Of a DNA stretch of 64,000 bases, positions 3,187 through 54,478 are shown piece by piece. This DNA comes from Parcubacteria group bacterium. Lineage in GTDB: Bacteria > Patescibacteriota > Minisyncoccia > Moranbacterales > UBA11712. The stretch spans positions 2,040-66,039 of the forward strand of contig JBAZXV010000003.1 in NCBI GenBank assembly GCA_041659685.1, read 5' to 3'. The translations under genes and the position numbers were made by a program. Positions within the stretch are counted from its first letter, which is position 1. The number at the start of each line of letters is the position of its first letter. The notes beneath the pieces were generated by a model. The model was not told the origin of the DNA. It did not search any database and was given only the letters and a program-made list of their open reading frames with translations.

Positions 3187-3192
3187 ATCATT

Positions 3193-3250
3193 TTGCCGAA
3201 AAAAACAGGAGTAATAGAAAGAAAATAGAGGCTTCTATGGAGGCCTCTAA
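3193..3250 (+). repeat. composite intergenic repeat, long form, ending in AATAGAGGCTTCTATGGAGGCCTCTAA
   Basis: Same consensus as the other long-form copies and the same + orientation. Lies immediately 3' of rsgA. Confidence 0.75.
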
Positions 3251-3477
3251 ATATTTCCTAAGGTTAAACTTTAGAAAACGCTAGACTTGACTTTTACTGG
3301 TTAAAAGTGTATCTTTCCAAATCAAATTTAGACATTGATTTTGATCCTGTTTTCCTTCAGAACGCAAGATTTGCGTTTTGCGCGGTATACGGGATCGCTC
3401 CTGCATATCCTGCCAGTCGCCCGGCGGGGTGGTCCTCGCAGACCATCAAAAAAAGTTCTTTGCAAGAGGAGATTACC

Positions 3478-4449
3478 ATGCAAGAAGATTTTATTTCGCG
3501 GATTCAGGGCTTCACTGACCTTCCGGATCGAGGCATGGAAGCGGTTGTTCAAAGAATGGAATACCCTTTCCTGCTTCACGAAATTTTCATTCCTGGTTGT
3601 TCCGCGCAGGATGAAGCGAAGTCCATAAAGGACCAATTGCTCCCTGCTATTTACTTCTATATGGAAAACTGGCTGCCTCTGGCACTCGATAAGGGGAAGA
3701 AGATCCAAGATGTCTATCGGCATTTTTTTGACTTCCCCCTGGATTTCGAAGTGGAAAAAGTATACTTGAAAGTTGTCCAGGGCAAAGAGTATTGCGACAT
3801 CCATGTTCTTCTGAATAATTCCAGCCTCCAGGTGAAGAGGTTCGGCAATTGTCTCGGAATTAGGATAGTCTCTGAGAACTCCAAAAAGGATCCGCATGGA
3901 ACCGGCACGGCAATCTTGGAACAATTTACGAAAAATACTTCCTCGCCGGTGGCAAATTTTTGGCACAGTGCCGATTTCATTGTCCCATTGCTGAGGCGTC
4001 ACAGAGAACCTTTCTCGGTGATTATTGATCTGGATGAGACATACATCCGCCTCGTGAAATCCTGTCCATTCGTGAAATGGATTCCTTTCCCGGAATTCGC
4101 CAAAATCATTGATGCCTACAAGACGAAAAAATCCGTGTTAGCGGGAAAATGTCAGGGCATCTCGATAATGGCGGAATTTATCCATTATACTAACGATGAG
4201 ATTGTGAAGTCAGAGGTGTATCGGAGAGGAAATGTCAGGAATTTCGAGGATTTCCTGGTCACTTTTTCTCGCGGCGATGACCTCTGCCTCAAGATCACGG
4301 CCAATAGCGGCCTTCCGAAGAACAGCTTTTCGACGAATGTCGCTTTGGACCTGGATGTGAGTAATCTGCAATCCGTCCTGAAAGACGTTGCGTCGATGCT
4401 CTATTTTCAATTGTCGGCGCAGACGCTCAACGATCGCCAGAGAAAATAG
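3478..4449 (+). CDS. hypothetical protein
   Basis: Long ORF. The internal ATG at 3478 has an AGGAGA SD, whereas the upstream part of the track ORF overlaps repeat sequence. No recognisable domain. Confidence 0.6.
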   Translation: MQEDFISRIQGFTDLPDRGMEAVVQRMEYPFLLHEIFIPGCSAQDEAKSIKDQLLPAIYFYMENWLPLALDKGKKIQDVYRHFFDFPLDFEVEKVYLKVVQGKEYCDIHVLLNNSSLQVKRFGNCLGIRIVSENSKKDPHGTGTAILEQFTKNTSSPVANFWHSADFIVPLLRRHREPFSVIIDLDETYIRLVKSCPFVKWIPFPEFAKIIDAYKTKKSVLAGKCQGISIMAEFIHYTNDEIVKSEVYRRGNVRNFEDFLVTFSRGDDLCLKITANSGLPKNSFSTNVALDLDVSNLQSVLKDVASMLYFQLSAQTLNDRQRK

Positions 4450-7881: not shown

Positions 7882-8006
7882 AACAGCGCGCTGCCTATTC
7901 GGACGCGCTGTTTTCATTTGCCGAAATTCTATTTCACTCCCGCCCTCGCCCGAAATATGAGGAGTGGTAGGATAAAAGGAATAGAGGCTTCTATAGAGGC
8001 CTCTGA
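7882..8006 (+). repeat. composite repeat: hairpin+T-run, long-form core, AATAGAGGCTTCTATAGAGGCCTCTGAA
   Basis: Same family and the same orientation. Confidence 0.75.
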
Positions 8007-10426: not shown

Positions 10427-10455
10427 AAAATAGAACTTCTATAGAGTCTCCCAAG
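10427..10455 (+). repeat. degenerate copy of the double-palindrome repeat (AAATAGAACTTCTATAGAGTCTC)
   Basis: Similar to the TAGAAGCTTCTATAGAGGCCTCTA family. Confidence 0.55.
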
Positions 10456-10596: not shown

Positions 10597-11205
10597 ATGT
10601 TTGATGACAGAAAAGCGACACAATTACTGAATTATCTTGCACAAAAAGAAGGTGGCAAGATTAACTTCTTAAAGTCGATGAAACTTGTTTATCTCATTGA
10701 TAAGTTTCATTTGAGAAAATACGGCAAAACAATTACAGGCGACCTTTATTATGCAATGAGTAAGGGTCCAGTTGCTTCAAATACTAAAGATATTTGCAAG
10801 TATATACTTCGAGATGATATGGACTATGGAAAAAATGACTATTATGACAAATACATAAAAAAAGGTCGAGTAAAGTTTACTCTTCAATCTATTCAACAGC
10901 CCGACCTTGAGTATTTCTCCGAAGTAGAGATTGAATCTATAGATGCGGTATATGAACAATTCAAGGGTTTCAGCGGTTTTAAATTAGTTGACATTACTCA
11001 CGACACATTTGAATGGAAATGCAAAAGTGAATTTTTAAAAAAAGGAGCCTTGAGAGAGCAAATGAGGTTAAGTGATTTTTTAATCGATCAAAGATATTCT
11101 GAAAGAAGCCCCTTAAGAATATTCAATACAACAAAAACTGATTTAGAAAGGGTTTCAAAAACTTATGATCTAATTAGAAATACTCGGCTGTCTTGTGAAT
11201 GTTGA
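10597..11205 (+). CDS. Panacea-domain (DUF4065 / SocA-like) protein, putative PanA antitoxin
   Basis: N-terminal region LLNYLAQKEGG..KLVYLID..YG..ITGDLYYAMSKGPV matches the DUF4065 signature (KL.Y.....G......A...GPV). Confidence 0.72.
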   Translation: MFDDRKATQLLNYLAQKEGGKINFLKSMKLVYLIDKFHLRKYGKTITGDLYYAMSKGPVASNTKDICKYILRDDMDYGKNDYYDKYIKKGRVKFTLQSIQQPDLEYFSEVEIESIDAVYEQFKGFSGFKLVDITHDTFEWKCKSEFLKKGALREQMRLSDFLIDQRYSERSPLRIFNTTKTDLERVSKTYDLIRNTRLSCEC

Positions 11206-11214
11206 TTGAATACT

Positions 11215-11673
11215 ATGAAGCGCATCAAGCAGATTGAAGAAGAAATTACTAAGGGTGTTGGTGCAGTTTTCAGATTCATAAACCCAGAATATTCAACGAG
11301 CATTCACCACTTTAAAATTCTTATAGGTATTGATAAATCGAAAGCAAAAGATGTTTTGCTTTTTCTAACCTGCACCTCAAAAAGTATTGTGATGAGAAGC
11401 TATGTGTTGATAAGTAATGTATTAATTATAAATAAAGATGAATATTGCGAATTAAGTGAAGAAACCTCAATTTTATGTAATGATATTGAAACTGTAAATA
11501 TTGATGACCTAGTTGGAAAATATCTCTCAGATTGCGAATTTAAGGTTTGCGAACGAATTAGTGATGATTTGTTAATTCGCATTTACCAAGTTATAAAAGA
11601 TTCGAGAGAGGTTAGCAAAAAACATAAAAAAATTATAAGAAAAAATTTGAACCAGAAAGGGATCATTGATTGA
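11215..11673 (+). CDS. hypothetical protein, candidate cognate toxin of the upstream Panacea antitoxin
   Basis: The ORF begins 10 nt after the stop of 10597..11205. No recognisable domain. The role is inferred from gene-pair architecture. Confidence 0.5.
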   Translation: MKRIKQIEEEITKGVGAVFRFINPEYSTSIHHFKILIGIDKSKAKDVLLFLTCTSKSIVMRSYVLISNVLIINKDEYCELSEETSILCNDIETVNIDDLVGKYLSDCEFKVCERISDDLLIRIYQVIKDSREVSKKHKKIIRKNLNQKGIID

Positions 11674-11700
11674 CGTTGCACAATTAATTCGAAACTATTA

Positions 11701-11778
11701 ACGGCCCGTAAGGCCTGTTTTTCTTTTTTTATGACTCTGTTAAAATGAAATAGAAGCTTCTATAGAGGCCTCTAAAAG
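11701..11778 (+). repeat. composite repeat: GGCCCGTAAGGCC hairpin + T-run, CTCTGTTAAAATGAAA, double palindrome
   Basis: Near-identical to 17322-17390. Confidence 0.75.
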
Positions 11779-11801
11779 TTTCAAATTATAGATTTTTAAA
11801 T

Positions 11802-12410
11802 ATGAAAAATAAATTTCAGATCTGTGTTTGCGGATGGTATTATTATCCAGAGTTTTATAAAGCCCTGCTTAGAGTCAAAGATAAATTCAGCATTATTGTA
11901 ATTGGAAATAAAGAAGGAGAAGTTTTTAATTTGCCTTTTGTCTTGAGAAACAATATCGGTTTGGATTGGGGTGCTTATTCTTTTTTTCTTGATAATAAAT
12001 GGGACGGCAAATCAAATGTTTTGTTTATGCAGGACGATTCAACAGTTTCTGATGGTTTTTTTGAGGAAATGTCCAAAATTTCTTTCGACCAAGCCTTTAT
12101 ATTTCGCAACCAAAAAGAGTTTGAAGAAAATTATAGCCACGGGAGAGCTTTTTTCGCTTCCGGAAAATTTCTTAAAAACTTGAATGAAGATGGCGGGATT
12201 TTGTTTGATGAAGGCAACAATGGTTTCATCGCCAAAGGGACTTCTTGGTCAGAAAAGCCGCCCAAGGGTTGCCAAGACCATAATGCGGGAATAAGAGACT
12301 TTACTTCAAAAGTTAAACGAATCGGTGAAAATAATCCTGAACTATCGGTAAATAAACAAGTTTATTCTGAAAAAGTGCGCTTGGGAAGAAGAGGAGTAAT
12401 CAGTAGATAA
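11802..12410 (+). CDS. hypothetical protein (Cys-rich N-terminus CVCGWYYYPEFY)
   Basis: 202-aa ORF in the AT-rich island. No domain recognised. Confidence 0.5.
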   Translation: MKNKFQICVCGWYYYPEFYKALLRVKDKFSIIVIGNKEGEVFNLPFVLRNNIGLDWGAYSFFLDNKWDGKSNVLFMQDDSTVSDGFFEEMSKISFDQAFIFRNQKEFEENYSHGRAFFASGKFLKNLNEDGGILFDEGNNGFIAKGTSWSEKPPKGCQDHNAGIRDFTSKVKRIGENNPELSVNKQVYSEKVRLGRRGVISR

Positions 12411-12446
12411 TTGATTTGGATAGTGATAAAATAAAAGAAGAAATTT

Positions 12447-13463
12447 ATGGAGAAAAATAATTTTAGCCAAGGCGAGATAGTCATCTATAAAACCCCTCAA
12501 AAAGAGGTGGAATTGAAAGTGCGTTTTGAAAAAGAAAATATCTGGTTGAATCAAAATCAAATCGCCCTACTTTTTGGCACGCAGAGGCCGGCAATCACCA
12601 AACATCTAAAGAATATTTTTGAAAGCGGAGAGCTTAAGGAAAAAGTGGTTAGTTCCATTTTGGAACTAACCACCGAGCATGGGGCCATCAAAGGAAAAAC
12701 GCAAACAAACAAGGTGAAATTTTATAATTTGGACGCTGTCATTTCTGTTGGCTATAGAGTAAATTCCCAAAGAGCCACGCAGTTTCGAATATGGGCGACC
12801 AAAATTTTGAAGCAATATTTGGTCAAGGGCTATGCCATCCATGAAAAACGCCTTTTGGAGACCCAAAGCAAATTTCATGAACTGCAAGAGTCGATTTTGT
12901 TTTTGCAAAAACAGTCAAAAAAGAAATTGCTGAAAGGCCAGGAAACGGAAATTTTGAATTTGCTTTCTGATTATTCCAAGACCCTCACTTTGCTGGAAAA
13001 ATACGACAAAGAAAAACTGGGCAGCCCCAAAGGAGCAAAAACAAAATTTGTTTTGAGATATGCCGATTGCGCGGGAATCATCGCCAAGCTCAAAAAAGAG
13101 CTGATTGCCAAAAAAGAGGCCGGCGATCTGTTCGGGCAGGCAAGAGGCGGAAGTTTTGAGGGGATTATCAAAGGACTTTATCAAACATTCGGCAAAAAAG
13201 AACTTTATCCATTGATCGAGGACAAAGCTTCTCATTTGCTCTATCTCATAATCAAAGATCACCCATTCTCCGACGGCAACAAGCGCTCGGCGGCGTTTTT
13301 GTTCGTCTATTTTTTGGATAAGGCAGACTATCTTTTCAAAAAGTCCGGCGAACGGAAAATCAATGACAACGCGCTCACCGCTTTGGCGCTTCTCATTGCT
13401 GAAAGCAATCCGAAAGACAAGGATGTTTTGATAAAAATCATAACCAACTTATTGGGTGATTGA
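12447..13463 (+). CDS. RhuM-family virulence protein with C-terminal Fic/Doc domain
   Basis: N-terminal RhuM-like block (IWLNQNQIALLFG..RPAITKHLKNIF..FRIWATKILKQYLVKGY) is present. The C-terminal Fic/Doc motif HPFSDGNKRSAAF matches HxFx(D/E)GNxR. Confidence 0.8.
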   Translation: MEKNNFSQGEIVIYKTPQKEVELKVRFEKENIWLNQNQIALLFGTQRPAITKHLKNIFESGELKEKVVSSILELTTEHGAIKGKTQTNKVKFYNLDAVISVGYRVNSQRATQFRIWATKILKQYLVKGYAIHEKRLLETQSKFHELQESILFLQKQSKKKLLKGQETEILNLLSDYSKTLTLLEKYDKEKLGSPKGAKTKFVLRYADCAGIIAKLKKELIAKKEAGDLFGQARGGSFEGIIKGLYQTFGKKELYPLIEDKASHLLYLIIKDHPFSDGNKRSAAFLFVYFLDKADYLFKKSGERKINDNALTALALLIAESNPKDKDVLIKIITNLLGD

Positions 13464-13487
13464 TTTTCTTTGCAAAAAATAATCAAG

Positions 13488-13512
13488 GTAGAAGCTTCTA
13501 TAGAGGCCTCTA
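13488..13512 (+). repeat. double-palindrome repeat TAGAAGCTTCTATAGAGGCCTCTA
   Basis: Perfect copy, two adjacent 12-bp palindromes. Confidence 0.8.
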
Positions 13513-13542
13513 GGAAAATAAGATATGAGAAATAAGAAATAA

Positions 13543-13580
13543 CCCCAGTTGAATGATGCGACAGAGTCGCAATTCAACGG
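13543..13580 (+). promoter_or_regulatory. about 15-bp-arm inverted repeat (GTTGAATGATGCGAC/GTCGCAATTCAAC) abutting the RBS of the small AbrB-like gene
   Basis: Seen directly. A related IR lies upstream of the decayed copy at 20630-20663. Confidence 0.5.
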
Positions 13581-13591
13581 AGTAAAAAAAT

Positions 13592-13762
13592 ATGGCTGAG
13601 AAAAAAGGTATAATCAAGCTTAAGAAAGCGAGTGCGTATAGTTTTTCCGTGACCATCCCGAAAGAAATCATCGAGAAATATAAATGGAGGGAAAAACAAA
13701 AGCTGGTCGTCACCGACAAAGGCCGCGGGAAGATAGAGATCAGCGATTGGCGGAGGAAGTGA
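13592..13762 (+). CDS. small AbrB/MazE/SpoVT-like (looped-hinge helix) DNA-binding protein, multicopy family
   Basis: 56 aa, below the ORF-track cutoff. Motif SFSVTIPKEIIEKY...DKGRGKIEISDWRR resembles the swapped-hairpin AbrB fold. A paralog lies at 18396..18575. Confidence 0.6.
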   Translation: MAEKKGIIKLKKASAYSFSVTIPKEIIEKYKWREKQKLVVTDKGRGKIEISDWRRK

Positions 13763-13820
13763 TCTTGGATAGAAAAACACTTTATTGCAAAAACACCGAA
13801 ATATAATATAATGCTTATAT

Positions 13821-14414
13821 ATGCCAGACACAGACCCATTACAAGATCAGGAAGGATTGTTGAGCATTGAGACTCCGCTAGTGTTCGCAGATGGAACGAC
13901 TTTTTTCAAAAACCTTGCCAAGGACTACATTGTCCATGAAAGAGGTTTTTTTATTTTGGGCCCGTCTGGTGTCGGCAAAAGCCATTATTACCGCAACCAG
14001 AAAGAGGGCGAAAAGCATTGGATCGATGCAGACCGGGTATGGCGCTGGTCCAAAGCGATGCCAAAAGGAGCTTGGTGGGAAAAAGGATTGGAAGTGTCTC
14101 AAGACGTTGAGTCTAAATGCGATATTATTACTGAAGAGGCGAAAAAAAAGGGCTTTTGGCTGATCGGCTCGGCCAATAATTGGCTGGTTCCGGATGCCAT
14201 CGTAATTCCGCATTGGCGCACTCATGTCAAATTCATAAAAAAAAGAGAACTCAATTTTGACGGAGGAGCGCGGTCAACTCCCAAAGATCTGGCCCAGGTA
14301 AAGAGTCACCGAAAATTAATCTCGCTTTGGGCAAAAAAAGGAGTGCCTAAGTTCAATTCCGTTGAGGAAGCGATAATGCACTTGGAAAATATTTATCATA
14401 AAAAATATAAATAA
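13821..14414 (+). CDS. P-loop NTPase (kinase-like) of unknown function
   Basis: Walker A motif GPSGVGKSH is present. The rest of the sequence is not assignable. Confidence 0.6.
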   Translation: MPDTDPLQDQEGLLSIETPLVFADGTTFFKNLAKDYIVHERGFFILGPSGVGKSHYYRNQKEGEKHWIDADRVWRWSKAMPKGAWWEKGLEVSQDVESKCDIITEEAKKKGFWLIGSANNWLVPDAIVIPHWRTHVKFIKKRELNFDGGARSTPKDLAQVKSHRKLISLWAKKGVPKFNSVEEAIMHLENIYHKKYK

Positions 14415-16124: not shown

Positions 16125-16129
16125 GGTTG

Positions 16130-16205
16130 AAATGGAGGCTTCTATCGCCTGCGGCAGAGGCCGCGGCGTGGTTGAAATCTGCGATTGGAGGAAAAGATAA
16201 TTAAC
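16130..16205 (+). pseudogene. decayed remnant: repeat fragment (GAGGCTTCTAT) fused to the AbrB-like gene 3' end (..GRGRGVVEICDWRKR*)
   Basis: Direct similarity to 13700-13762 and 18520-18575. Confidence 0.55.
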
Positions 16206-16212
16206 GATTCCA

Positions 16213-16247
16213 TCTCTTGCCAGCCTCTGCGGGCTGGTTTTTTTGTA
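16213..16247 (+). terminator. rho-independent terminator (CCAGCC..GGCTGG + T7)
   Basis: Hairpin followed by a T-run. Confidence 0.6.
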
Positions 16248-17321: not shown

Positions 17322-17390
17322 ATTGCCTGTTTTTCTTTTTTTGCGGCTCTGTTAAAATGAAATAGAAGCTTCTATAGAGCCCTCTATGAT
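17322..17390 (+). repeat. composite repeat: GCCTGTTTTTCTTTTTTT, CTCTGTTAAAATGAAA, double palindrome
   Basis: Near-identical to 11701-11778. Confidence 0.75.
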
Positions 17391-17484: not shown

Positions 17485-18333
17485 ATGGGAAAAAACAAAA
17501 AACAAATCGCCATTTTTGAAGGCAAAAAAATCCGCCGCCATTGGGACGGGAAAAAAGAAAAATGGTATTTTTCGGTCGTGGATATCGTTGCCGTGTTGAC
17601 AGACAGCGAAAATCCGCAGGTTTACTGGCGTGTGCTGAAAAAACGCCTGCTTGACGAGGGTTCAACTGAAACCGTTACAAAATGTAACGGTTTGAAAATG
17701 CGAGCTTCCGACGGAAAAATGAGAATAACCGATGTCGCAGACGTCGAAACACTGCTGCGGCTCGTTCAATCTGTACCGAGTCCAAAAGCCGAACCGATCA
17801 AACTCTGGCTCGCGCGGGTCGGCTATGAAAGAATGCAAGAAACGATTGATCCGGAAAAATCCATAAACAGGGCTAGGATGAACTGGCAAAGGCTCGGCCG
17901 GAGCCAAAAGTGGATCCAGCAGAGAATGATGGGCCAGGAAACCCGAAACAAGCTCACCGATTATTGGAAAGATCACGAAATCAGCCAACAAGAGGAATAT
18001 GCGATTCTGACGAATATTATTCACGAAGAATGGAGCGACCTGTCGGTGCAAGGGCACAAAAAACTGAAAGGGATCAAGGCTGAAAACCTGCGCGACCATA
18101 TGACGGAAGCAGAACTAATTTTCACGGCGCTGGCCGAACTTTCAACCCGCCAAATCGCCGAAACGGATCAGGCAACCGGATTCGAGGAAAACAAATCTCC
18201 GGCGAGAAGCGGCGGACGGATCGCCAAGCGCGCCCGGCTGGATCTGGAAAGAAAAACCGGAAAAAAGATTGTGACCAAAGAAAATTTCAAATTGCCAGGC
18301 GGAAAAACCAAACAAATTCGCAACAGGAAATAA
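17485..18333 (+). CDS. DNA-damage-inducible protein D-like / Bro-N domain protein
   Basis: N-terminal Bro-N-like region (IRRHWDGKKEKWYFSVVDIVAVLT). The C-terminal region aligns by eye with DinD. Confidence 0.65.
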   Translation: MGKNKKQIAIFEGKKIRRHWDGKKEKWYFSVVDIVAVLTDSENPQVYWRVLKKRLLDEGSTETVTKCNGLKMRASDGKMRITDVADVETLLRLVQSVPSPKAEPIKLWLARVGYERMQETIDPEKSINRARMNWQRLGRSQKWIQQRMMGQETRNKLTDYWKDHEISQQEEYAILTNIIHEEWSDLSVQGHKKLKGIKAENLRDHMTEAELIFTALAELSTRQIAETDQATGFEENKSPARSGGRIAKRARLDLERKTGKKIVTKENFKLPGGKTKQIRNRK

Positions 18334-18359
18334 AATAGAAGCTTCTATAGAGGCCTCTG
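18333..18359 (+). repeat. double-palindrome repeat
   Basis: AAATAGAAGCTTCTATAGAGGCCTCTGAAG. It overlaps the TAA stop of the upstream gene. Confidence 0.8.
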
Positions 18360-18395
18360 AAGAAATAAAATATAAAAAATAAAATGTAAAAAGTT

Positions 18396-18575
18396 ATGAC
18401 TGAGAAAAAAGGCGTCCACAAGCTTAAGAAATCGAGCGCGTATAGTTTCTCCGTGACCATCCCCAAAGAAATCGTCGAAAAATACGGCTGGAAAGAGAAG
18501 CAAAAGCTGGCAGTCATCGACAAAGGCCGCGGCGTCGTCGAGATCCGCGACTGGCGGAAGAGGCAATTCAAATAG
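18396..18575 (+). CDS. small AbrB/MazE/SpoVT-like protein, second copy
   Basis: 59 aa, about 70% identical to the 13592..13762 product. Confidence 0.6.
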   Translation: MTEKKGVHKLKKSSAYSFSVTIPKEIVEKYGWKEKQKLAVIDKGRGVVEIRDWRKRQFK

Positions 18576-18604: not shown

Positions 18605-19876
18605 ATGAAAGAGAAATTGAATAAACTCTACCGCGAGACTTTTTCTTCACTGGCAAATCGTAATTTCCGTTTGTATTTCATCGGACAAAGCATTTCAATG
18701 ACTGGCTATTTCATGCAAGGAATTGCTCTTGCCTGGCTTGTCCTCAAAATCACAAACTCGGGCACCGCTCTGGGATTCGCCGTATCTTTGCAATATGCGC
18801 CCATGCTCGTGCTGGGGCCTTGGGGTGGAATGATCGCGGATCGTTTTTCCAAGCGCGTCCTTCTTATTATAACCAAAGCGGTCTTCGGCATTCTGGCTTT
18901 TTTGCTGGGCATCCTTGTCCTCACGGGGACGATCCAAATTTGGATGATTTATCTTTTGAGTCTGGCCGTTGGAATTGTGGGTCTGATTGATAGCCCCGCC
19001 TATTATGCTTTCGTTTCCGAACTGGTCGAGGGACATGAAGTTAAGAATGCCGTCACGCTCAACGCTAGCATGATAAATTTGACCAGAGTTGCCGGACCGG
19101 CATTGGCCGGCATTCTGATCGCCACAGTCGGAATCGCTCCCTGCTTCCTTCTCAACGGCGCTTCTTATATTGTCATCATTGTTGCCCTTCTTCGCATTAA
19201 AAAGGATGAGCTTCAAAAAATTTCACCGCTCGTCAAATCAAAAGGAATGGTTTGGGAAGGTTTTCGCCATGTGATGTCAAAACCTGTCCTTGCCAGTACA
19301 GTTGTCATGATTGCGATAATCGGCACACTTACCTATGAATTTCCAGTGAGCTTGGCGCTGTTTGCCAAGACTACATTTCATGGCAGTGCTGGCGGCTACG
19401 CTGCCTTGACTGGAGCTCTCGGGCTGGGATCTGTTCTCGGGGGACTTTTTCACGCCAGACGAAAAATTAAAAGTTCAAGCACGCTGGCAATGGCCGCACT
19501 CATATTCGGTTGCTCTGTCATTTTTGCGTCTTTTATGCCAACTTTAGTTTTAGCGGCGGGTGTTATGACACTGGTCGGAGCGTGTTCCATTTGGTTTGCC
19601 ACCCTCGCCAACACGACTTTGCAGCTCAATAGCGATCCGCAGCTCCGTGGAAGGGTCATGGTGCTTTGGTCAATGTCTTATCTCGGCTCCACGGCTATCG
19701 GCGGTCCGCTGATCGGCTGGATCGGCGAACACACTGGTCCGCGGTGGAGTTTGGCCGTCGGAGGATTGGCAGCGATTGTCGCCGCGGCCTTGGGATTTAT
19801 TATTATACGCAATCAGAAACGCCTGCCTGCAGTAACCGAAGCAGAAACCACATCCAATCTCTATAAAACAAAATAG
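18605..19876 (+). CDS. MFS transporter (EntS/YbdA-like, 12 TM)
   Basis: Typical MFS N-terminal pattern and multiple TM segments. The TAG stop lies inside a double-palindrome repeat. Confidence 0.88.
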   Translation: MKEKLNKLYRETFSSLANRNFRLYFIGQSISMTGYFMQGIALAWLVLKITNSGTALGFAVSLQYAPMLVLGPWGGMIADRFSKRVLLIITKAVFGILAFLLGILVLTGTIQIWMIYLLSLAVGIVGLIDSPAYYAFVSELVEGHEVKNAVTLNASMINLTRVAGPALAGILIATVGIAPCFLLNGASYIVIIVALLRIKKDELQKISPLVKSKGMVWEGFRHVMSKPVLASTVVMIAIIGTLTYEFPVSLALFAKTTFHGSAGGYAALTGALGLGSVLGGLFHARRKIKSSSTLAMAALIFGCSVIFASFMPTLVLAAGVMTLVGACSIWFATLANTTLQLNSDPQLRGRVMVLWSMSYLGSTAIGGPLIGWIGEHTGPRWSLAVGGLAAIVAAALGFIIIRNQKRLPAVTEAETTSNLYKTK

Positions 19877-19898
19877 AAGTTTCTATGGAGGCCTCCGG
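19871..19898 (+). repeat. double-palindrome repeat (AAATAGAAGTTTCTATGGAGGCCTCC)
   Basis: Family member. It supplies the stop codon of the MFS gene. Confidence 0.75.
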
Positions 19899-19933: not shown

Positions 19934-20623
19934 ATGCGAGAAATATTCAAAGGGATTGTAAAGAATTTTAAAAGAACCGGCGTGCTACAAGAGGATGTCG
20001 CAATATTTTTAAGAATGCATGATTGTGAAGACACCATAAAACATGTTAATACTGTTGCTGAGGAAGCAAAAATATTGGCATCCCGTTTTTTTGAAAGCCA
20101 GGAAGACGCCTTTTCTGCGGGACTGCTTCATGATGTCAGCGTTTTGTTTCCCGAAGAGGATCGATTGAAGATTGCGAATGAACTCAAAATCGATGTTTTG
20201 CCGGAGGAAAAAATTTATCCGGCCATTCTCCACCAAAAAATTTCTCAAGTTATGGCTCGAGAAATTTTTGGAATTACGGATGAAAATGTTTTGAACGCAA
20301 TCGGTTGTCACACCACTCTCAAGGAAAATGCATCGGTTTTGGATAAAATTGTTTTTATATCCGATAAAATAAGGTGGGACCAGAAATATGATGCGCCTTT
20401 CAAGAGCGATGTTTCAAAAGCTTTGGATATTTCATTGGATGAATCCTGTTTTTGTTATTTGAATTATCTGTGGAACAGAAAAGAAAGTCTTGCGGTTGTG
20501 CATCCATGGATGGCAGCTGCCTACAGACAGCTGGGTAATGATTTAAAAAAATTCGGATTTAGTTTGATATATAATGATGATGGCAAAATAGAAGCTTCTA
20601 TGGAGGCCTCTAATAAAAATTAA
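19934..20623 (+). CDS. HD-domain protein, YqeK-like (bis(5'-nucleosyl)-tetraphosphatase family)
   Basis: H..V...A..LA.RF ... LLHDV ... YHT ... ISDKI pattern is typical of YqeK HD hydrolases. The 3' end reads through a double-palindrome repeat at 20586-20612. Confidence 0.72.
   Translation: MREIFKGIVKNFKRTGVLQEDVAIFLRMHDCEDTIKHVNTVAEEAKILASRFFESQEDAFSAGLLHDVSVLFPEEDRLKIANELKIDVLPEEKIYPAILHQKISQVMAREIFGITDENVLNAIGCHTTLKENASVLDKIVFISDKIRWDQKYDAPFKSDVSKALDISLDESCFCYLNYLWNRKESLAVVHPWMAAAYRQLGNDLKKFGFSLIYNDDGKIEASMEASNKN
20586..20612 (+). repeat. double-palindrome repeat inside the 3' end of the HD gene
   Basis: AATAGAAGCTTCTATGGAGGCCTCTAATAA. Confidence 0.75.
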
Positions 20624-20745
20624 CTCCTGTTGAATAATGCGAGCCGCGATTCAACGGGGAAAGTAAAAAATATGCCTGAGAAAAAATCCACTCATAAGCT
20701 CAAAAAATCGTTCTCGAAGAAGGCGTTTAATGGGGAGATATAGAA
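20620..20745 (+). pseudogene. truncated AbrB-like gene copy with upstream IR (MPEKKSTHKLKKSFSKKAFNGEI*)
   Basis: The 5' part matches 13543-13650 (IR + start) and is then interrupted by a stop. Confidence 0.55.
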
Positions 20746-20825: not shown

Positions 20826-21545
20826 ATGGAAGAAAAATTACTTACAATTGGTCAAGCTGCGGAATATTTGGGGGTTTCTTTGAATACACTTCGCCGTTGG
20901 GATGAAAGCGGTAAATTGGTTGCGATCAAAAAAGAGGGCGGGACTCATCGTTATTACCGTGAAGATGATTTGGAAATATTTTCCAGTGATTTAACGAGGT
21001 TTGCTACGGAATGGATCCGAAATGGAGTTGAATTTCCAGGCACATTTTATTGCCAGACAAGTTCAATTTTTAACGCGAAATTGACGAAAATGCAAAGCGC
21101 GCTGATGCAAAAGCCAGGGTTTGAAGAGCTATATTCCTTGATTGTTTTAATTGCCGGAGAAATTGGCGATAATTCATTTGCTCACAATTTAGGGAAGTGG
21201 CCGGATACCGCGGGAATCTTTTTTGGTTATGATCTTGAAAAACGAATAATTGTTCTTGCTGACAGAGGATTGGGTATCTTGGAAACACTGCGACAAGTTC
21301 GACCGAAACTTCCAAATCATGTGGAAGCGGTAAAAGTAGCATTTACGGAATTTGTTTCCGGGCGTGCGCCGGAAAAGCGAGGCAACGGCCTTAAGCTTGT
21401 TCGCGAGGTTGTCACCGATCAGCCAATTGATTTATTTTTTATCAGCGGTGACGCCGAAGTGCGCATGAAAGGGCAAAATAAAGTATTTCGTGTTACGCGC
21501 GGCCAGCATATTGTGAGAGGATGTCTGGCTAAAATAGAATTCTAA
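20826..21545 (+). CDS. MerR-family HTH fused to a GHKL (HATPase_c, RsbW-like) ATPase/kinase domain
   Basis: N-terminal TIGQAAEYLGVSLNTLRRWDESGKL matches the MerR HTH. The C-terminal region has an N-box-like EIGDN..AHN and a G-box-like GRAPEKRGNGLKLV. Confidence 0.65.
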   Translation: MEEKLLTIGQAAEYLGVSLNTLRRWDESGKLVAIKKEGGTHRYYREDDLEIFSSDLTRFATEWIRNGVEFPGTFYCQTSSIFNAKLTKMQSALMQKPGFEELYSLIVLIAGEIGDNSFAHNLGKWPDTAGIFFGYDLEKRIIVLADRGLGILETLRQVRPKLPNHVEAVKVAFTEFVSGRAPEKRGNGLKLVREVVTDQPIDLFFISGDAEVRMKGQNKVFRVTRGQHIVRGCLAKIEF

Positions 21546-21567
21546 TACATCTTAAAAAGCAAAATAT

Positions 21568-21867
21568 ATGAAATTACAAATCGAAAAATTCGGCAAGACA
21601 TTAATTTCGCGGGAATTAGGCCGAGAGGCATTTAAGGCCTTTCAGCCAACCTTGCGCGACCTTCCTAAAAATGAAGATCTGGAGATAGATTTTTCCGGAG
21701 TATTGACATTGTCGCCATCATGGGCTGATGAATTTTTAAGCCCATTATTTGATCAACTGGATGACAAGTTAATAATCTTGCCAAGCGATAATCTTTCGGT
21801 GCGTGCGACGCTTAAAATTCTCGAAGAGGTCAATAAGCGGCCGTTCAAGATCAGGCCGCAATCCTGA
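21568..21867 (+). CDS. STAS-like (DUF4325-type) small protein, putative partner of the upstream GHKL protein
   Basis: 99 aa. The pattern is consistent with STAS/anti-sigma antagonist-like proteins. It lies 22 nt downstream of the previous gene. Confidence 0.55.
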   Translation: MKLQIEKFGKTLISRELGREAFKAFQPTLRDLPKNEDLEIDFSGVLTLSPSWADEFLSPLFDQLDDKLIILPSDNLSVRATLKILEEVNKRPFKIRPQS

Positions 21868-21929
21868 TTTAGTTTGAGTGATGTTCAAGCAGTGTAATAT
21901 TTATAAACTCATTCACCCTAAAAAGGAAG

Positions 21930-21982
21930 AGTCGAACAAAGGCCGCGGCGTGGTGGAAATCCGCGATTGGCGGAAGAAGTGA
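21930..21982 (+). pseudogene. 3' remnant of the AbrB-like gene (..KGRGVVEIRDWRKK*)
   Basis: Matches 18520-18575 with no start codon. Confidence 0.55.
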
Positions 21983-22319: not shown

Positions 22320-22475
22320 ATGAATTATACAGAATGGCGTCGAAATATCTTCAGAAATACATAGTGCGCGAGTTAAAAGAACTTAAGGATCACGGACACA
22401 CCTGGAAAGATTTTCGGATGGTCGATCCGTTCGGTTTTTATCTGAGATTCACAGAACTCATCGACTGGGGACAAA

Positions 22476-22503
22476 AATAGAAGCTTCCATGGAGGCCTCT
22501 AAA
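22476..22503 (+). repeat. double-palindrome repeat followed by a terminator-like hairpin
   Basis: AAAATAGAAGCTTCCATGGAGGCCTCTAAATT, then CCAGCTCGAGCCGGCTGG+T6 at 22505-22535. Confidence 0.75.
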
Positions 22504-22622
22504 TTCCAATCCCCCACCAGCTCGAGCCGGCTGGTTTTTTGATTTTCTGAAAATGCCACGCGGCTGGCTTTTTTATTGGAAAAAAATAGGTTATAATTAA
22601 ACAAAGCAAACAATTGTTTTTT

Positions 22623-36373: not shown

Positions 36374-36603
36374 ACAAAAATCGACGCTGAATCTTTGCTA
36401 AGGTTCAATCTTAGCAAAGTATTATTTTCCAAACTCAGCATTTTTATACGGCCGTGGGAAAATGCTAAGCTTAAAAGTATGGAGAAGAGATGCATCAAAG
36501 GAACGACTGAAGCAGAAGTTTTTTTGTTCCCCTCCCCCGACTTTGCCCGAAATATGAGGAGCGGTAGGATAAAAAATAGAAGCTTCTATGGAGGCTTCTA
36601 AGG
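36374..36603 (+). repeat. second copy of the 220-bp long-hairpin unit + long-form core + double palindrome
   Basis: About 85% identical to 4655-4870 / 4585-4650. Confidence 0.75.
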
Positions 36604-36700: not shown

Positions 36701-36795
36701 GACAAGGCAAATATTCAAACAGCGTCCGATTGGACGCTGTTTTTGTGTCTTCCCTTGAAAAGATTATGTATCCTGAAATTGAATATTGGAAAAAT

Positions 36796-38703
36796 TTATG
36801 GCCGGTAGACGCAGCGGAAACCGGTATTGGTGTTCTTGCTGGTAATAGGAGTTCCCAAGCTTAAGGCATAGATGCCAGCAATTGTACCGTACCACCATGT
36901 TCCACCGCGGTTAAAAGCAAGATTCGTCGAGTTTGTGTTTCCAACCGGATTAAATGTATAAACCATTCCCATATTTTGAGCTGAATTCCAACTGGGATTC
37001 CCAGGTCGCAAACTGGCATAGCTCATCGTCCCGTAATCATCAATAGTAGTATATTCTTTCCAGTCCTGACTATCATCCGGACCAGTGGTTGAATGGGGAT
37101 TGTCTTTTGGTTTGATCATATCAGAAACATTTTCAAAAAGGTTTCCGGAGAGGTCCCAAACCGTTTCACTATTGGAAAGCGTGAAAGTGCGCCTTTGCGC
37201 CGAGGGAGCGGAATCTCCGGTACCTTCATAGCCTTGCGAATCATCTGCGTTAGCAGCGCCAACGGACATACTGGGAACATTATCCGTATGCCCCAGATAA
37301 AGACCCCCTTCCCCCACAGTTCCCGAAGTCCAATTGTCACCGATATTTTCGATGTTCCTCGCCATAGTCATCCATTCGTTGTTGGTGATGAGATGGTACC
37401 CAGTTCCAAGTCCTGAACAAGAGGAAACGGAGGTGGTTTGGGAGATGTTAGCAATGGAATAACCCGATGCAAGTGATTTGACATAAGCAGAAGTACAGGC
37501 TTGAGCATTATTATCATATGTTTGCTTGTTTGTCGCCGGCGTCACATCCCCCGCTCCGTCGTTGTTAAAATCGCACTTAGCCTCATACTTCATGACGCAG
37601 AAGCCTCCGCCGGTTCCGTAGCGGACGTCTCCGGGAACGGGAACGTATCCATCGGGGCAACTCGTGGGCTGGACATGGGGGTCGGTCGGAACATCCAGGT
37701 ATTCATCAGTTTCACTAGCCTGGGTGTTGTAAATCTTGGCGGTTTTATCGGTTGAATTGTAATAAATTTTCCCTTCCTCGGCCGAGGGAGCAGCGGTTTG
37801 GGAATCAAGCTTCAGAGTTCCGATATTCAGTTTGGCATTGGTGAGGGTGAGGTTTCCCGAAGAATCGGTGGCGGGGATGACGCTCACTCCTCCGGTTGTT
37901 GAGGTATTGAGATCATCCAAAAGATCAGTGTTGAGGTTCGCAACTTTGGTTGCGGAAGCAACGGTGAACGGGGCGGTTCCGGTGATTTGGGCGGAGGAAA
38001 AGGTGAGAGAACTGATGTTTCCGGTGGCGGAGAGGTCCACCATGTTTGAAAGGCTTCCTCCGTTCCAATTCCAATTCCCGTTGAAGTTTCCGTCGGTGAT
38101 GGTGTTGGTTCCGAGATCAAGATTGGTGATATTTCCAGTGGTGAGGGTGATCCCGTCGGCCAATTTGTCGCTCGTTATGGTATGGCTTTGGATATCATCT
38201 CCCGTGATGGCGTTCGAAAGGTTTAGTTTGGAAGCGTCGATGTTGGCGGCAGGCGATATCTGGTCATTGGTAATATACCCTGAAAGATTCAGCTTGGAAG
38301 GGCTGATTGAAGCATTGTCGGCGATGGAAGCATCGGTAATCGTTCCGGATTTGATGTTGCTTTCCGTAATTGTTCCGCGGCTCAGACTTTCTTCTCTCAG
38401 AGAGCGATTTTGAATAGTCTTGGCGACGATAATCCCATCCGTTCCCATGGTTCCCGAAACATCGATTTGGTCATTGGAAAGAAACTGGTCAAGGGTGGCA
38501 GTTTTTCCTTTGGCGTTTTGAAGCTTGGCCCTTTCGGTATTAATGGTATAGGTTTTTGAGTTTTTGGAGGCGATAAGGGTGGTTCCGGAGATTTCAGTGA
38601 TAACGGCTTTGGTAAGTTTGGTTTTTTTGGCGGCCAGCGCCGGAGAAACCGCGGAAAGAAGGAATGCGATGGCCAGAACGGCGATGGTTTTTTTGTTTTT
38701 CAT
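36796..38703 (-). CDS. secreted protein with C-terminal formylglycine-generating-enzyme (FGE-sulfatase/SUMF1)-like domain and an N-terminal repetitive region
   Basis: Signal peptide MKNKKTIAVLAIAFLLSAVSPALA. C-terminal NEWMTMARN..GNLFENVSD..GGTWWYG..GFRCV matches the FGE-sulfatase fold. Confidence 0.72.
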   Translation of the reverse strand: MKNKKTIAVLAIAFLLSAVSPALAAKKTKLTKAVITEISGTTLIASKNSKTYTINTERAKLQNAKGKTATLDQFLSNDQIDVSGTMGTDGIIVAKTIQNRSLREESLSRGTITESNIKSGTITDASIADNASISPSKLNLSGYITNDQISPAANIDASKLNLSNAITGDDIQSHTITSDKLADGITLTTGNITNLDLGTNTITDGNFNGNWNWNGGSLSNMVDLSATGNISSLTFSSAQITGTAPFTVASATKVANLNTDLLDDLNTSTTGGVSVIPATDSSGNLTLTNAKLNIGTLKLDSQTAAPSAEEGKIYYNSTDKTAKIYNTQASETDEYLDVPTDPHVQPTSCPDGYVPVPGDVRYGTGGGFCVMKYEAKCDFNNDGAGDVTPATNKQTYDNNAQACTSAYVKSLASGYSIANISQTTSVSSCSGLGTGYHLITNNEWMTMARNIENIGDNWTSGTVGEGGLYLGHTDNVPSMSVGAANADDSQGYEGTGDSAPSAQRRTFTLSNSETVWDLSGNLFENVSDMIKPKDNPHSTTGPDDSQDWKEYTTIDDYGTMSYASLRPGNPSWNSAQNMGMVYTFNPVGNTNSTNLAFNRGGTWWYGTIAGIYALSLGTPITSKNTNTGFRCVYRP

Positions 38704-38807
38704 TTTGGTTTTCTTTAGCTGGTTAAATGCCAGCGGAAAACACAAAAGGCCTCCCGCTCGCCGACAACCCCTTTCGGAGTTGTCCACTACCCTTTCGAGT
38801 AGCGACA

Positions 38808-38858
38808 TTACTACATGATAGCGAAACGGAAAGCCGTTTCTATGTAGTAATGTTTTTA
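38808..38858. promoter_or_regulatory. inverted repeat CATTACTACATG-N25-CATGTAGTAATG upstream of the FGE-domain gene
   Basis: Perfect 12-bp arms, seen directly. Function unknown. Confidence 0.4.
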
Positions 38859-39149
38859 GGTGCCATGCTCCGACGCAACGTCGGAGTTTAGGCGTAAATT
38901 GTTGGCTTTATTATACTATTTCAAAAAAAACGCGCAAGTAGCAAACATTCTCCCCGCACTCTTCGGGATGTTCGAGTGGATATTTTTGCACGGGGCGAAA
39001 ATACTTTGCCAGCCAAATAACTCTTTTTTTCGAATCTGGAATATCCATTTCTAAAGTTGAACTCTGAAGTGACCATGGCGGACGAATGAAAGAAAACGCT
39101 CATTTTGCAGGTATAAATAAAAAGATTGTCAATATTTTTTACACGCCTG

Positions 39150-53836: not shown

Positions 53837-53977
53837 TTTGTCGGGTAAAAATTCTTAGGACAAAGAAACAAAGCCGGCGAATATTTGTAGGAATATACGA
53901 GAGAAAAATATAAGCGCGTTAATTTATAATTTACTCTGTTAAATAGCGCGCCGGAGCGCAATTTAACAGGAAAAAAT

Positions 53978-54478
53978 ATGGAAAAAAGCAACAACGGACA
54001 GAAAATTATTATCGAGCGCGTATTCAATGTTCCAAAAGAAAAAGCCTGGAAGGCCTGGACTGATCCTGAAATGATCAAAAAATGGTGGGGACCGAAAGAT
54101 TTCACAGCGCCCCATATCAGCCTCGATCTGCGCGCGGGCGGCAAGTTCCTCTATTCCATGCGGGGAAAAGCCGGACCGGATCAGCCGGTAAGAGATTTTT
54201 GGAATACCGGTAAATTTATGAAAATCGTGCCGCGGGAAAAAATCGTCTCATCCGTCAGCTTTGCGGACGAGCAAGGAAACCCCGTTCCCGCCTCGCACTA
54301 CGACATGCCCGACCAGTGGCCGATGGAAACCAAATCAACGACCATATTCGAGGAAACCGCAGATGGAAAAACAAAACTAACCGTGCGGGAGGCCGGCATT
54401 CCCGAAGAAATGGCCGAGCCCGCGCGCATGGGCTGGGAACAGTCTCTCGACAAATTTCAAAAAGTCCTTGAGCAATGA
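53978..54478 (+). CDS. SRPBCC-superfamily protein (Aha1/activator-of-Hsp90-ATPase-like)
   Basis: IERVFNVPKEKAWKAWTDPEMIKKWWGP is the typical AHSA1-domain start. Confidence 0.78.
   Translation: MEKSNNGQKIIIERVFNVPKEKAWKAWTDPEMIKKWWGPKDFTAPHISLDLRAGGKFLYSMRGKAGPDQPVRDFWNTGKFMKIVPREKIVSSVSFADEQGNPVPASHYDMPDQWPMETKSTTIFEETADGKTKLTVREAGIPEEMAEPARMGWEQSLDKFQKVLEQ

Follow-up and report, generated by a model that had tools for sequence, protein, structure and literature searches.

A stand-alone 56-residue AbrB/MazE-fold protein of Moranbacteria and a 12-bp-phased repeat array as its putative operator

How proteins of the AbrB fold read DNA sequence is a long-standing puzzle; the AbrB of Bacillus subtilis has no clear consensus site. 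To our knowledge, almost nothing is known about transcription control in bacteria of the candidate phyla radiation (CPR). This work concerns a small gene with an AbrB/MazE-type domain, and the array of 22 base pairs (bp) in front of it, in a stretch of 64,000 nucleotides (nt) from a Parcubacteria group bacterium (assembly GCA_041659685.1, contig JBAZXV010000003.1). The whole stretch is called the window below, and positions are those of the window. The closest described systems are regulators that act on their own genes. MraZ, the UPF0040 autorepressor of the dcw cluster, belongs to the SpoVT/AbrB superfamily, reads DNA with a "cradle-like" beta-hairpin motif, and binds cooperatively, as an oligomer, to three to four phased boxes upstream of its own gene, with the transcription start inside box 1 (PMC12957436). 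The antitoxins MazE, VapB and PemI belong to Pfam family PF04014, have a dimeric N-terminal domain and are negatively autoregulated via palindromic sites; in the case of MazE, three dimer sites lie within a 47-bp operator (PMC4333400). AbrB and Abh of B. subtilis have the swapped-hairpin N-terminal domain, are autoregulated and occur as a paralogous pair, and AbrB is a global repressor with hundreds of binding sites on the chromosome (PMC3025583). There are also the archaeal AbrB-like chromatin proteins of the Sso7c4 type (2l66, 5itj/5itm), which consist of a DNA-binding domain only, of about 55 residues, with a basic C-terminus (PMC3159460, PMC5222340). On the DNA side, the repetitive extragenic palindromes (REP) and the bacterial interspersed mosaic elements (BIME) are, like the array studied here, short, multicopy, mostly intergenic palindromes oriented with the genes.

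The window has two intact copies of the gene, each behind a copy of the array:

13490..13511 (+), array upstream of copy A; exact consensus, with the 10-bp palindromes AGAAGCTTCT and AGAGGCCTCT at a 12-bp phase, 80 nt to the ATG
13592..13762 (+), AbrB/MazE-fold gene copy A, 56 amino acids (aa), intact; identical to NCBI protein WC831_02455 of a metagenome-assembled genome (MAG)
18337..18358 (+), array upstream of copy B; starts 4 nt past the stop of a Bro-N/PDC-S13 gene, 37 nt to the ATG
18396..18575 (+), AbrB/MazE-fold gene copy B, 59 aa, intact, without the stem-loop described below

The source of WC831_02455, as found by database search, is a 150-kb contig of a "Parcubacteria group bacterium" MAG. 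By analogy, the 56-aa protein would work most like MraZ, MazE or AbrB. It is distinct from all three in being a bare 56-residue domain, and its candidate site is distinct in its 12-bp phase, in its turnover between lineages, and in its apparent spread on promoter cassettes in one lineage. MraZ has about 150 aa in two fused UPF0040 domains and forms octamers to dodecamers, and its boxes, conserved across bacteria, are GTG(G/T) motifs repeated in direct orientation every 10 nt; here, a single domain is accompanied by units of a 12-nt period, mostly palindromic or of mixed orientation, whose sequence changes from lineage to lineage in a variable gene context. Neither tandem domains nor 10-nt GTG(G/T) boxes were found, and there were no dcw-cluster families among the genes called next to the AbrB-like gene. 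The antitoxins carry a C-terminal toxin-binding tail and sit beside a toxin gene, and the window gene has neither. AbrB, with 94 aa, has an additional C-terminal tetramerisation domain, and whereas its sites are poorly defined, the candidate sites here are a sharply defined 22-mer. Sso7c4 is archaeal and is regarded as a largely nonspecific DNA-bending protein; we know of no report of phased cognate arrays at its gene. In contrast to REP and BIME, the 22-mer copies lie behind promoter cassettes and not at 3' ends, and most lineages have a single copy of the array, linked to one gene. A transposase of the RAYT type was not seen, though no search was aimed at one. No description of this gene-array system was found in the literature on AbrB in Parcubacteria and on palindromes in Moranbacteria.

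On balance we consider it probable, from comparison of the sequences, that the protein is a stand-alone, minimal AbrB-fold autorepressor, and that in the lineage of the window its operator has spread to many genes. Dimers of the protein would bind consecutive 12-bp units side by side and cooperatively, and, lying across the point where transcription of their own gene starts, would repress that gene, a negative autoregulation as in MraZ, MazE and AbrB. Because the array in the window's lineage sits behind two stereotyped promoter cassettes and before many unrelated genes, the protein is proposed to act there as a multi-target repressor. The gene and its array would have been duplicated as one unit, from array to stop codon, since that is the extent of the homology between copies A and B; from this would have come the two paralogues, now diverged, and no fewer than two decayed copies, in an island of accessory and defence genes. 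A stem-loop before the start codon, in which GGAG/GGGG bases are buried, probably modulates translation or mRNA stability. A wider form of this proposal is put forward only tentatively: that in at least nine lineages a 56-residue AbrB-fold repressor reads a 12-bp-phased array of a wholly different sequence through a hairpin that has co-evolved with that array, and that the operator of one lineage, together with its cassettes, was copied before dozens to hundreds of genes and, in frame, into dnaE and polA.

The protein itself is placed by several comparisons. The two copies score 29.1 and 28.4 bits against Pfam PF04014 (MazE_antitoxin, SpoVT/AbrB domain; cut-off 24.7), while the NCBIfam AbrB domain TIGR01439 gave only 19-21 bits, below its cut-off of 28.3. 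An AlphaFold (AF2) model built on 46 homologues has its elements in the order beta-beta-alpha-beta-beta, with a predicted local distance difference test (pLDDT) score of 82. When this model was compared with the PDB by Foldseek, the first 20 matches were without exception swapped-hairpin proteins (MazE, AbrB-N, SpoVT, Sso7c4, C68/C56 or VapB), with template-modelling (TM) scores of 0.42-0.66 and with E-values that are weak (0.5-6) because the chain is so short. An earlier note on this DNA had proposed two intact AbrB/SpoVT-like reading frames here with a swapped-hairpin signature, and both the genes and the assignment are borne out. Two database searches gave 47 and 81 clusters of homologues, a family of some 120 clusters, most of 53-64 residues and a few of up to 83, and every member with a named source comes from Moranbacteria or Patescibacteria MAGs; judged by these members, the gene family is specific to Moranbacteria and their relatives. 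The ratio of nonsynonymous to synonymous divergence (dN/dS) among the members is 0.03-0.23, with synonymous sites saturated. Copies A and B, 75% identical in protein and 81.6% in DNA, have a dS of 0.65 and a dN/dS of 0.23. These values make it a real, constrained gene and its two copies old paralogues. The 56-residue gene is therefore a real and conserved one that encodes a minimal AbrB/MazE-fold protein under strong purifying selection, and the protein putatively binds DNA as an interleaved-hairpin homodimer.

The array accompanies the gene well beyond the window. The 22-mer AGAAGCTTCTATAGAGGCCTCT, also written AGARGCYTCT-AT-AGAGGCCTCT, is conserved in many Moranbacteria MAGs and lies at most 130 nt upstream of 15 of the approximately 22 distinct genes of the window's sequence class (loci are cited below by L number). 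In loci picked without regard to the array, one copy is met every 5-7 kb or so, which makes the chance for any 150-nt stretch about 2%. At L089, a case of an operon, the AbrB-like gene has no array of its own; the methyltransferase gene 11 nt in front of it has the array in its promoter. Nearly all orthologues have an array close to the promoter. Distant orthologues from metagenomes have arrays of two to four units of different sequence at the 12-nt period, usually 4-9 nt past a TATAAT-like hexamer. One class of unit is ACGTATATACGT, present three times; another, GTACCTAC/GTAGGTAC, is arranged direct-direct-inverted or direct-direct-direct-inverted; further classes are CGTACGTACG, GGTACGTACC, AGAGGCATCT, GTACTTAC/GTAAGTAC, TAGTATATACTA, AGTGGCCACT and GGGTACYC. 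Extra direct-repeat units, in the order direct-direct-direct-inverted, are present at L062, L063, L070 and L085. The arrays of these other lineages are mostly unique within the 5-10 kb available. In 39 upstream regions, with DNA 170-510 nt further upstream as the control, the lag-12 autocorrelation, counted as matches in the best window of 24 nt, is 15.3, against about 11-12.7 at other lags and 11.4 in the control DNA, and the longest perfect inverted repeat has a mean of 8.2 nt against 5.5 nt in the control.

Protein and array also vary together. When 31 proteins were sorted into 11 classes by array, proteins of one class agreed at 85% of the 15 positions that precede the invariant PKE motif, and proteins of different classes at 50%; over the 30 residues that begin with PKE, the two values are 75% and 68%. 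For example, the protein with KIGKASKWSYN goes with the GTACCTAC array, and that with HKLTKTSSHSYF goes with ACGTATATACGT. The 15-residue segment aligns with the N-terminal strand and hairpin that form the DNA-contact region of MazE and AbrB, the part by which MazE and VapB2 (PMC4333400), as well as MraZ (PMC12957436), touch the bases. The class-variable residues are at positions 11, 15, 16 and 19. The link between the gene and a double palindrome, noticed earlier in the window alone, thus holds in dozens of orthologues, and the sequence of the repeat changes together with the protein.

The same comparison bears on the idea of a nucleoid-associated protein without sequence specificity, of the kind of Sso7c4, with the arrays belonging to some other factor or process. 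Sso7c4 is the best neighbour of the 56-aa protein in the PDB by sequence and fold, the Sulfolobus "histone-like" AbrB proteins 5itm, 5itj and 2l66 coming first in the profile search, and the size (about 55 aa) and the basic C-terminus (DWRKK) are also similar; in Sso7c4, the C-termini help DNA binding (PMC5222340). However, the profile match is weak (E 0.36), and one would not expect of a nonspecific binder that the divergence between classes concentrates in the DNA-reading segment, or that a phased array is kept at its own promoter in nearly every lineage. We regard this idea as quite improbable.

Several points weigh against the autorepressor as proposed. The gene and its array are adjacent and co-inherited, and part of the correlation between them is therefore expected from phylogeny. 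No array lies within 170 nt in L038, L051, L054-56 and L078. Exact 22-mers are found inside dnaE, polA-like and other open reading frames (ORFs) of related MAGs, which a simple promoter-operator model leaves unexplained. The assignment of -35 and -10 elements is weak for copies A and B. Lastly, every array holds an inverted pair that could fold as an RNA hairpin of 8-16 bp, and the weak covariation among the 34 distinct 22-mers favours a dyad over the whole site, with hairpin-type pairs (reached by 16 of 500 shuffles), and does not favour separate palindromes within each unit (439 of 500 shuffles).

The last point leads to the possibility that the array works as RNA, that is, as a 5'-terminal or intergenic, REP-like hairpin of many mRNAs that controls their stability, processing or translation and need not be bound by the protein at all; on this view, the AbrB-like gene would be one whose transcript invariably bears a leader of this sort. 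The predicted folding energy is -6.7 kcal/mol for the 22-mer, -19 kcal/mol for L060 (z -4.3) and as low as -43 kcal/mol for L063 (z -7.9). In the covariation just mentioned, the pair 7-16 has four pair types and one break, and the variants AGAGGC..GAAGCC (L048, L024, L031) and AGAGGCATC..GATGCCTCT (L069) restore the pairing between units while losing the palindromy of each. Terminators follow the copies at 22479, L001, L019 and L028, as expected if the array is transcribed, and a terminator scan flags two copies. Yet the commonest form has an A.C mismatch and a G.U pair between its arms, while each of its 10-mers is a perfect palindrome, for which a hairpin has no need. An RNA role also does not account for the strict 12-nt phase over at least nine unrelated unit sequences, for the extra direct-repeat units in some arrays, which suggest iterated protein sites, for the variation of the protein's DNA-reading segment with the array, or for the uniqueness of the array to the AbrB-like gene in most lineages. 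Rfam has no family for the array or the stem-loop; at gathering thresholds it gives only a LOOT RNA elsewhere in the window, and its E-value mode gives noise at 13440-13800. We therefore judge an RNA-only role of the array unlikely. It should be added that the two roles are not exclusive: the array could be an operator, a 5' leader hairpin, or both together.

The intragenic 22-mers are of interest in themselves. They occur in dnaE (L003, L016), in polA-like genes (L004, L010, L027) and in long ORFs at L007 and L014 of other Moranbacteria MAGs; besides dnaE and polA-like genes, the hosts include a gene for an ATP-grasp protein and one for an acidic protein. The 22-mers are always read in the frame (I/L)EASIEAS. 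The EASIEAS stretch of DnaE aligns without insertion or deletion to LPTFPAT/VETVPAT of the orthologues. Spread by simple insertion into coding DNA was rejected for this case, because there is no change in length; in-place conversion, or selection for an intragenic site, is suggested instead.

Within the window, the 22-mer occurs ten times with at most three mismatches, always on the + strand, where shuffled sequences give an expectation of 0; a degenerate eleventh copy lies near 10427. In related MAGs the array has a density of about 1 per 5 kb. No AbrB copy follows seven of the ten, and these seven, with the cassettes in front of five of them, are as follows:

3190-3226, P1 cassette
3227..3248 (+), array behind a P1-type cassette; ORF 3307..4449 starts 58 nt on
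7945-7982, P1 cassette
7983..8004 (+), array behind a P1 cassette (TCGCCC-16-TAGGAT); SNase nuclease gene (8103) 98 nt on
11715-11751, P2 cassette
11752..11773 (+), array behind a P2 cassette (terminator, then ATGACTCTGTTAAAATgaaat); ORF 11802 is 28 nt on
17325-17363, P2 cassette
17364..17385 (+), array behind a P2 cassette; Bro-N/PDC-S13 gene (17485) 99 nt on
19875..19896 (+), array with 3 mismatches; the TAG at its 5' edge is the stop of the MFS gene, and the HD gene (19934) is 37 nt on
22479..22500 (+), array; the TAG at its 5' edge is the stop of ORF 22334..22480, and a terminator (22516-22535) and then a gene for a 1134-aa surface protein follow
36535-36577, P1 cassette
36578..36599 (+), array behind a P1 cassette; about 120 nt without a long ORF follow, then a bidirectional terminator at about 36721-36745

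The P1 cassette consists of TTGCCN, 16 nt and TAGGAT or TAGAAT, followed by an A-rich stretch. Besides the arrays at 3227, 7983 and 36578, it is found at L001, L018/L089, L031 and L044, and in reverse at L002 and L024. The P2 cassette consists of the T-run of an upstream terminator followed by ATGACTCTGTTAAAATgaaat (also given as ATGACTCTGTTAAAAT), and it is found at 11752, 17364, L013, L041 and L043. Since the spacer sequences are conserved too, both look like homologous copies of promoter-operator modules. The genes behind the arrays are unrelated to each other: an SNase nuclease, a SocA/Panacea gene, Bro-N/PDC-S13, an HD-domain gene, the 1134-aa surface protein and, via copy B, an MFS transporter. 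It is worth keeping in mind that the promoters and transcription starts are predictions made by eye from the sequence; a generic sigma-70 and terminator scan did not single out promoters at the arrays, and flagged two of the arrays as terminator-like hairpins.

Some smaller features of the arrays may be added here. The TAG at the joint of an AAAAT leader and the 22-mer (AAAATAGAAGC) is the stop codon of two upstream ORFs (19874-19876, 22478-22480). An HD-domain ORF, in turn, is translated through a whole repeat, at 20590-20623 (ending in GKIEASMEASNKN and the stop). The segment 36535-36745 (+), with P1, the 22-mer, about 120 nt holding a 34-codon ORF only, and the bidirectional terminator, is a candidate transcription unit for a small RNA or a micro-ORF. 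The 102-kb contig Ga0116182_1000077 (L038, L070) encodes two AbrB-like paralogues of different classes: P0063 has a GTACCTAC array, and P0037 has no upstream array and a degenerate AGAGGC-type array directly past its stop codon (L038 4166-4200).

Between the array and the start codon, copy A and one of the remnants have in addition a stem-loop in the 5' untranslated region (UTR):

13541..13584 (+), 5'-UTR stem-loop of copy A, CCCCAGTTGAAT..ATTCAACGGAG; ends 8 nt before the ATG, covariance model R1 58.9 bits
20622..20661 (+), second copy of the 5'-UTR stem-loop; covariance model R1 51.8 bits

Its core is the inverted repeat GTTGAATGATGCGAC..GTCGCAATTCAAC at 13548-13578, with a variant at 20625-20657. 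The earlier note had described it as a long inverted repeat that precedes two of the copies and overlaps the ribosome-binding site, and this is correct: the 3' arm holds the Shine-Dalgarno-like GGAG/GGGG bases, 9-14 nt before the ATG. The general pattern is CCCCAGTTRAAT, a variable inner stem, and ATTYAACGGGG. Compensatory changes affect 6 of the 15 pairs in nine sequences, and the fold has a z-score of -3.7. Matches of the model with E <1e-10 lie only directly upstream of AbrB-like genes, of two different array classes, and a weak match also precedes the gene of L072. The stem-loop is nearly exclusive to AbrB-like genes; the clear exception is a hairpin at 53932-53973 (+), GTTAAATAGCGCG..GCGCAATTTAAC (R1 32.5 bits), directly before the AHSA1/SRPBCC-family gene 53978..54478. 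In other lineages a different hairpin, ATTCTGAA-N5-TTCAGAAT, is found in the same place. The stem-loop-less copies B, L031 and L035 have no Shine-Dalgarno sequence at all. The stem-loop is probably a facultative, RNA-level element that modulates translation or mRNA stability.

A six-frame search of the window located the remnants of further copies, one of them with an array of its own:

16129..16200 (+), AbrB remnant at 16.1 kb; the final ~23 codons (16129-16197), joined to a half repeat unit ATGGAGGCTTCTAT at 16132-16145
20590..20611 (+), array upstream of the 20.6-kb remnant; 1 mismatch, within the final codons of the HD-domain ORF 19934..20623, 60 nt to the ATG
20672..20743 (+), A-type 5' remnant; codons 1-13 (20672-20710), then unrelated sequence, with a stop at 20743
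21931..21982 (+), A-type 3' remnant; the final 16 codons and the stop

A terminator at 16219-16238 lies 3' of the first. In local alignments, the 20.6-kb remnant corresponds to the part of copy A that takes in the repeat, the stem-loop and codons 1-13, and the 21.9-kb remnant to the final 50 nt of copy A and about 10 nt beyond the stop. Because the two align to complementary parts of one type of copy, they are probably the halves of a single disrupted A-type gene. Between them is a segment of 1.2 kb with an HTH_17/MerR-type gene (20826-21545, 239 aa) and a DUF4325 gene (21568-21867, 99 aa), and an unrelated contig of 8.3 kb has the same pair of genes next to its AbrB copies. The two copies of a 12-bp direct repeat, GATTTAGTTTGA, at 20555-20566 and 21866-21877, lie on either side of the stretch that begins with the 20590 array and closes with the DUF4325 gene; the repeat may be a recombination scar.

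These results modify what had been said about the decayed copies. The three pieces that had been listed are there, at 16129-16197, 20672-20710 and 21931-21982, but two of them are probably one gene; the alternative that all copies are fragments of a larger disrupted gene applies to those two at most, the intact copies being independent small genes. Likewise, the statement that each copy lies 40-100 bp downstream of a repeat is right for three of the five (80, 37 and 60 nt), while the 16.1-kb remnant is fused to a repeat fragment and the 21.9-kb remnant has no repeat within 1.3 kb. The antisense ORFs 13510..13839 (-) and 18287..18571 (-) had been called mirror artefacts; since they overlap genes of the + strand with homologue support, they are indeed most simply read as shadows.

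The homology of copies A and B begins exactly at the array and ends at the stop codon. One may then ask whether this unit is the cargo, or the autonomous form, of a mobile element of which the solitary 22-mers are non-autonomous copies. Several decayed copies lie within a 9-kb accessory and defence island (PDC-S23, PDC-S13, SocA/Panacea and the helix-turn-helix (HTH)+DUF4325 pair), and the 22-mer is multicopy, even within ORFs. The orthologue at L041 (914-1081) is a chimera, a sign that the paralogues have recombined or undergone gene conversion: its N-terminal half is identical to copy A of the window, and its C-terminal half resembles copy B. Scans with Pfam, NCBIfam and PADLOC, which covered the ORFs between 10.6 and 21.9 kb that flank the copies, and not the other ORFs of the window, found no transposase, recombinase or nuclease family, save for a weak match of the IS607 type that covers only the N-terminal HTH of 20826-21545. 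Nor was any such Pfam family found beside the gene in seven other contexts, where the sole GIY-YIG gene (L089) is about 8.4 kb off. The repeat is at one end only of the array-to-stop unit, with neither terminal inverted repeats nor target duplications, and no relatives were found among 2.9 million viral contigs scanned. Moreover, the paralogues are old, the gene and its array are single-copy in most lineages, and the 22-mer in dnaE did not arrive by insertion. A mobile element is thus very improbable in our estimate, and of the two options named in the earlier note, a protein carried by a proliferating element or one regulating it, the first is not supported and the second is favoured by the evidence.

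Two features of the gene point by name to toxin-antitoxin systems: its Pfam family is called MazE_antitoxin, and many members bear the label "antitoxin component of YhaV-PrlF" from the Joint Genome Institute (JGI). Copy A also follows a gene with a Fic/DOC domain, the only toxin-type domain near the copies of the window. A Fic/Doc-AbrB pair was considered for copy A and rejected, because the neighbour is not a conserved one and the genes stand in the wrong order: the Fic gene is upstream, the intergenic gap after it contains copy A's array and leader, and the other loci lack the Fic gene. The AbrB-like gene might otherwise be an orphan type II antitoxin of the MazE, VapB or PemI kind whose toxin has been lost; the earlier note had named a mobile orphan antitoxin family as an alternative. 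In seven contexts with called genes, no toxin family or conserved partner adjoins the AbrB-like gene; its neighbours are mutually unrelated (peptidase S51/NUDIX, AAA_33/flavodoxin, methyltransferases, GFO_IDH and hypotheticals). None of the scans (Pfam, NCBIfam, PADLOC) identified a toxin gene downstream of copy A or B, and the AbrB-like protein itself has no PADLOC match. The Pfam domain ends at residue 50 of 56, and the protein stops six residues later; it is a DNA-binding domain only, with no counterpart of the toxin-binding tail of MazE, whose neutralisation of MazF depends on a long, disordered C-terminus (PMC4333400). That a solitary gene is under strong purifying selection in many MAGs also speaks against an orphan antitoxin. 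The antitoxin reading and the JGI label are unsupported, given that there is neither a toxin partner nor a C-terminal tail; we consider an orphan antitoxin the least probable of the explanations discussed, and the label misleading for the annotation of these genes.

If the autorepressor proposal is right, the gene and its array are a concrete and testable pair of regulator and operator, widespread in one CPR group. The family offers about nine natural pairs of protein and site that differ mainly in a segment of 15 residues, and would lend itself to swaps with 56-residue proteins and DNAs of 22-36 bp. The spread of an operator together with ready-made promoter cassettes, if true, would be a clear example of regulon expansion, with a regulon growing by copy and paste in a reduced CPR genome.

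A few further observations on the gene and its surroundings may be recorded. The start of an MFS_3 transporter gene (18605) is 29 nt past the stop of copy B, and the two may form one operon. At L085 (647-1136), a (decayed) GIY-YIG gene is inserted in the AbrB-like gene at about codon 31, and L076/L077 (1539-1736) have an insertion of 13 codons at the same spot. At L081 (4745-5159), an 85-aa GIY-YIG ORF abuts an AbrB-like remnant; a fusion of the two was not established, as the ORFs are in different frames and the AbrB part has no start codon. In the window, the AbrB copies sit in an accessory or defence-type island (10597-13463, 17485-18333). The gene at 10597 has a SocA/Panacea domain, that at 12447 is Fic+RhuM and matches the PADLOC candidate PDC-S23 (E 3e-121), that at 17485 is Bro-N and matches PDC-S13 (E 4e-123), and the pair at 20826-21867 is HTH(mad1-like) + DUF4325. 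Elsewhere in the window, the LOOT RNA (Rfam RF03000) at 38763-38894 (-) scores 70.5 bits against a gathering score of 46.4, and it overlaps the 5' end and the immediate upstream region of a 670-aa ORF, 36796..38808 (-).

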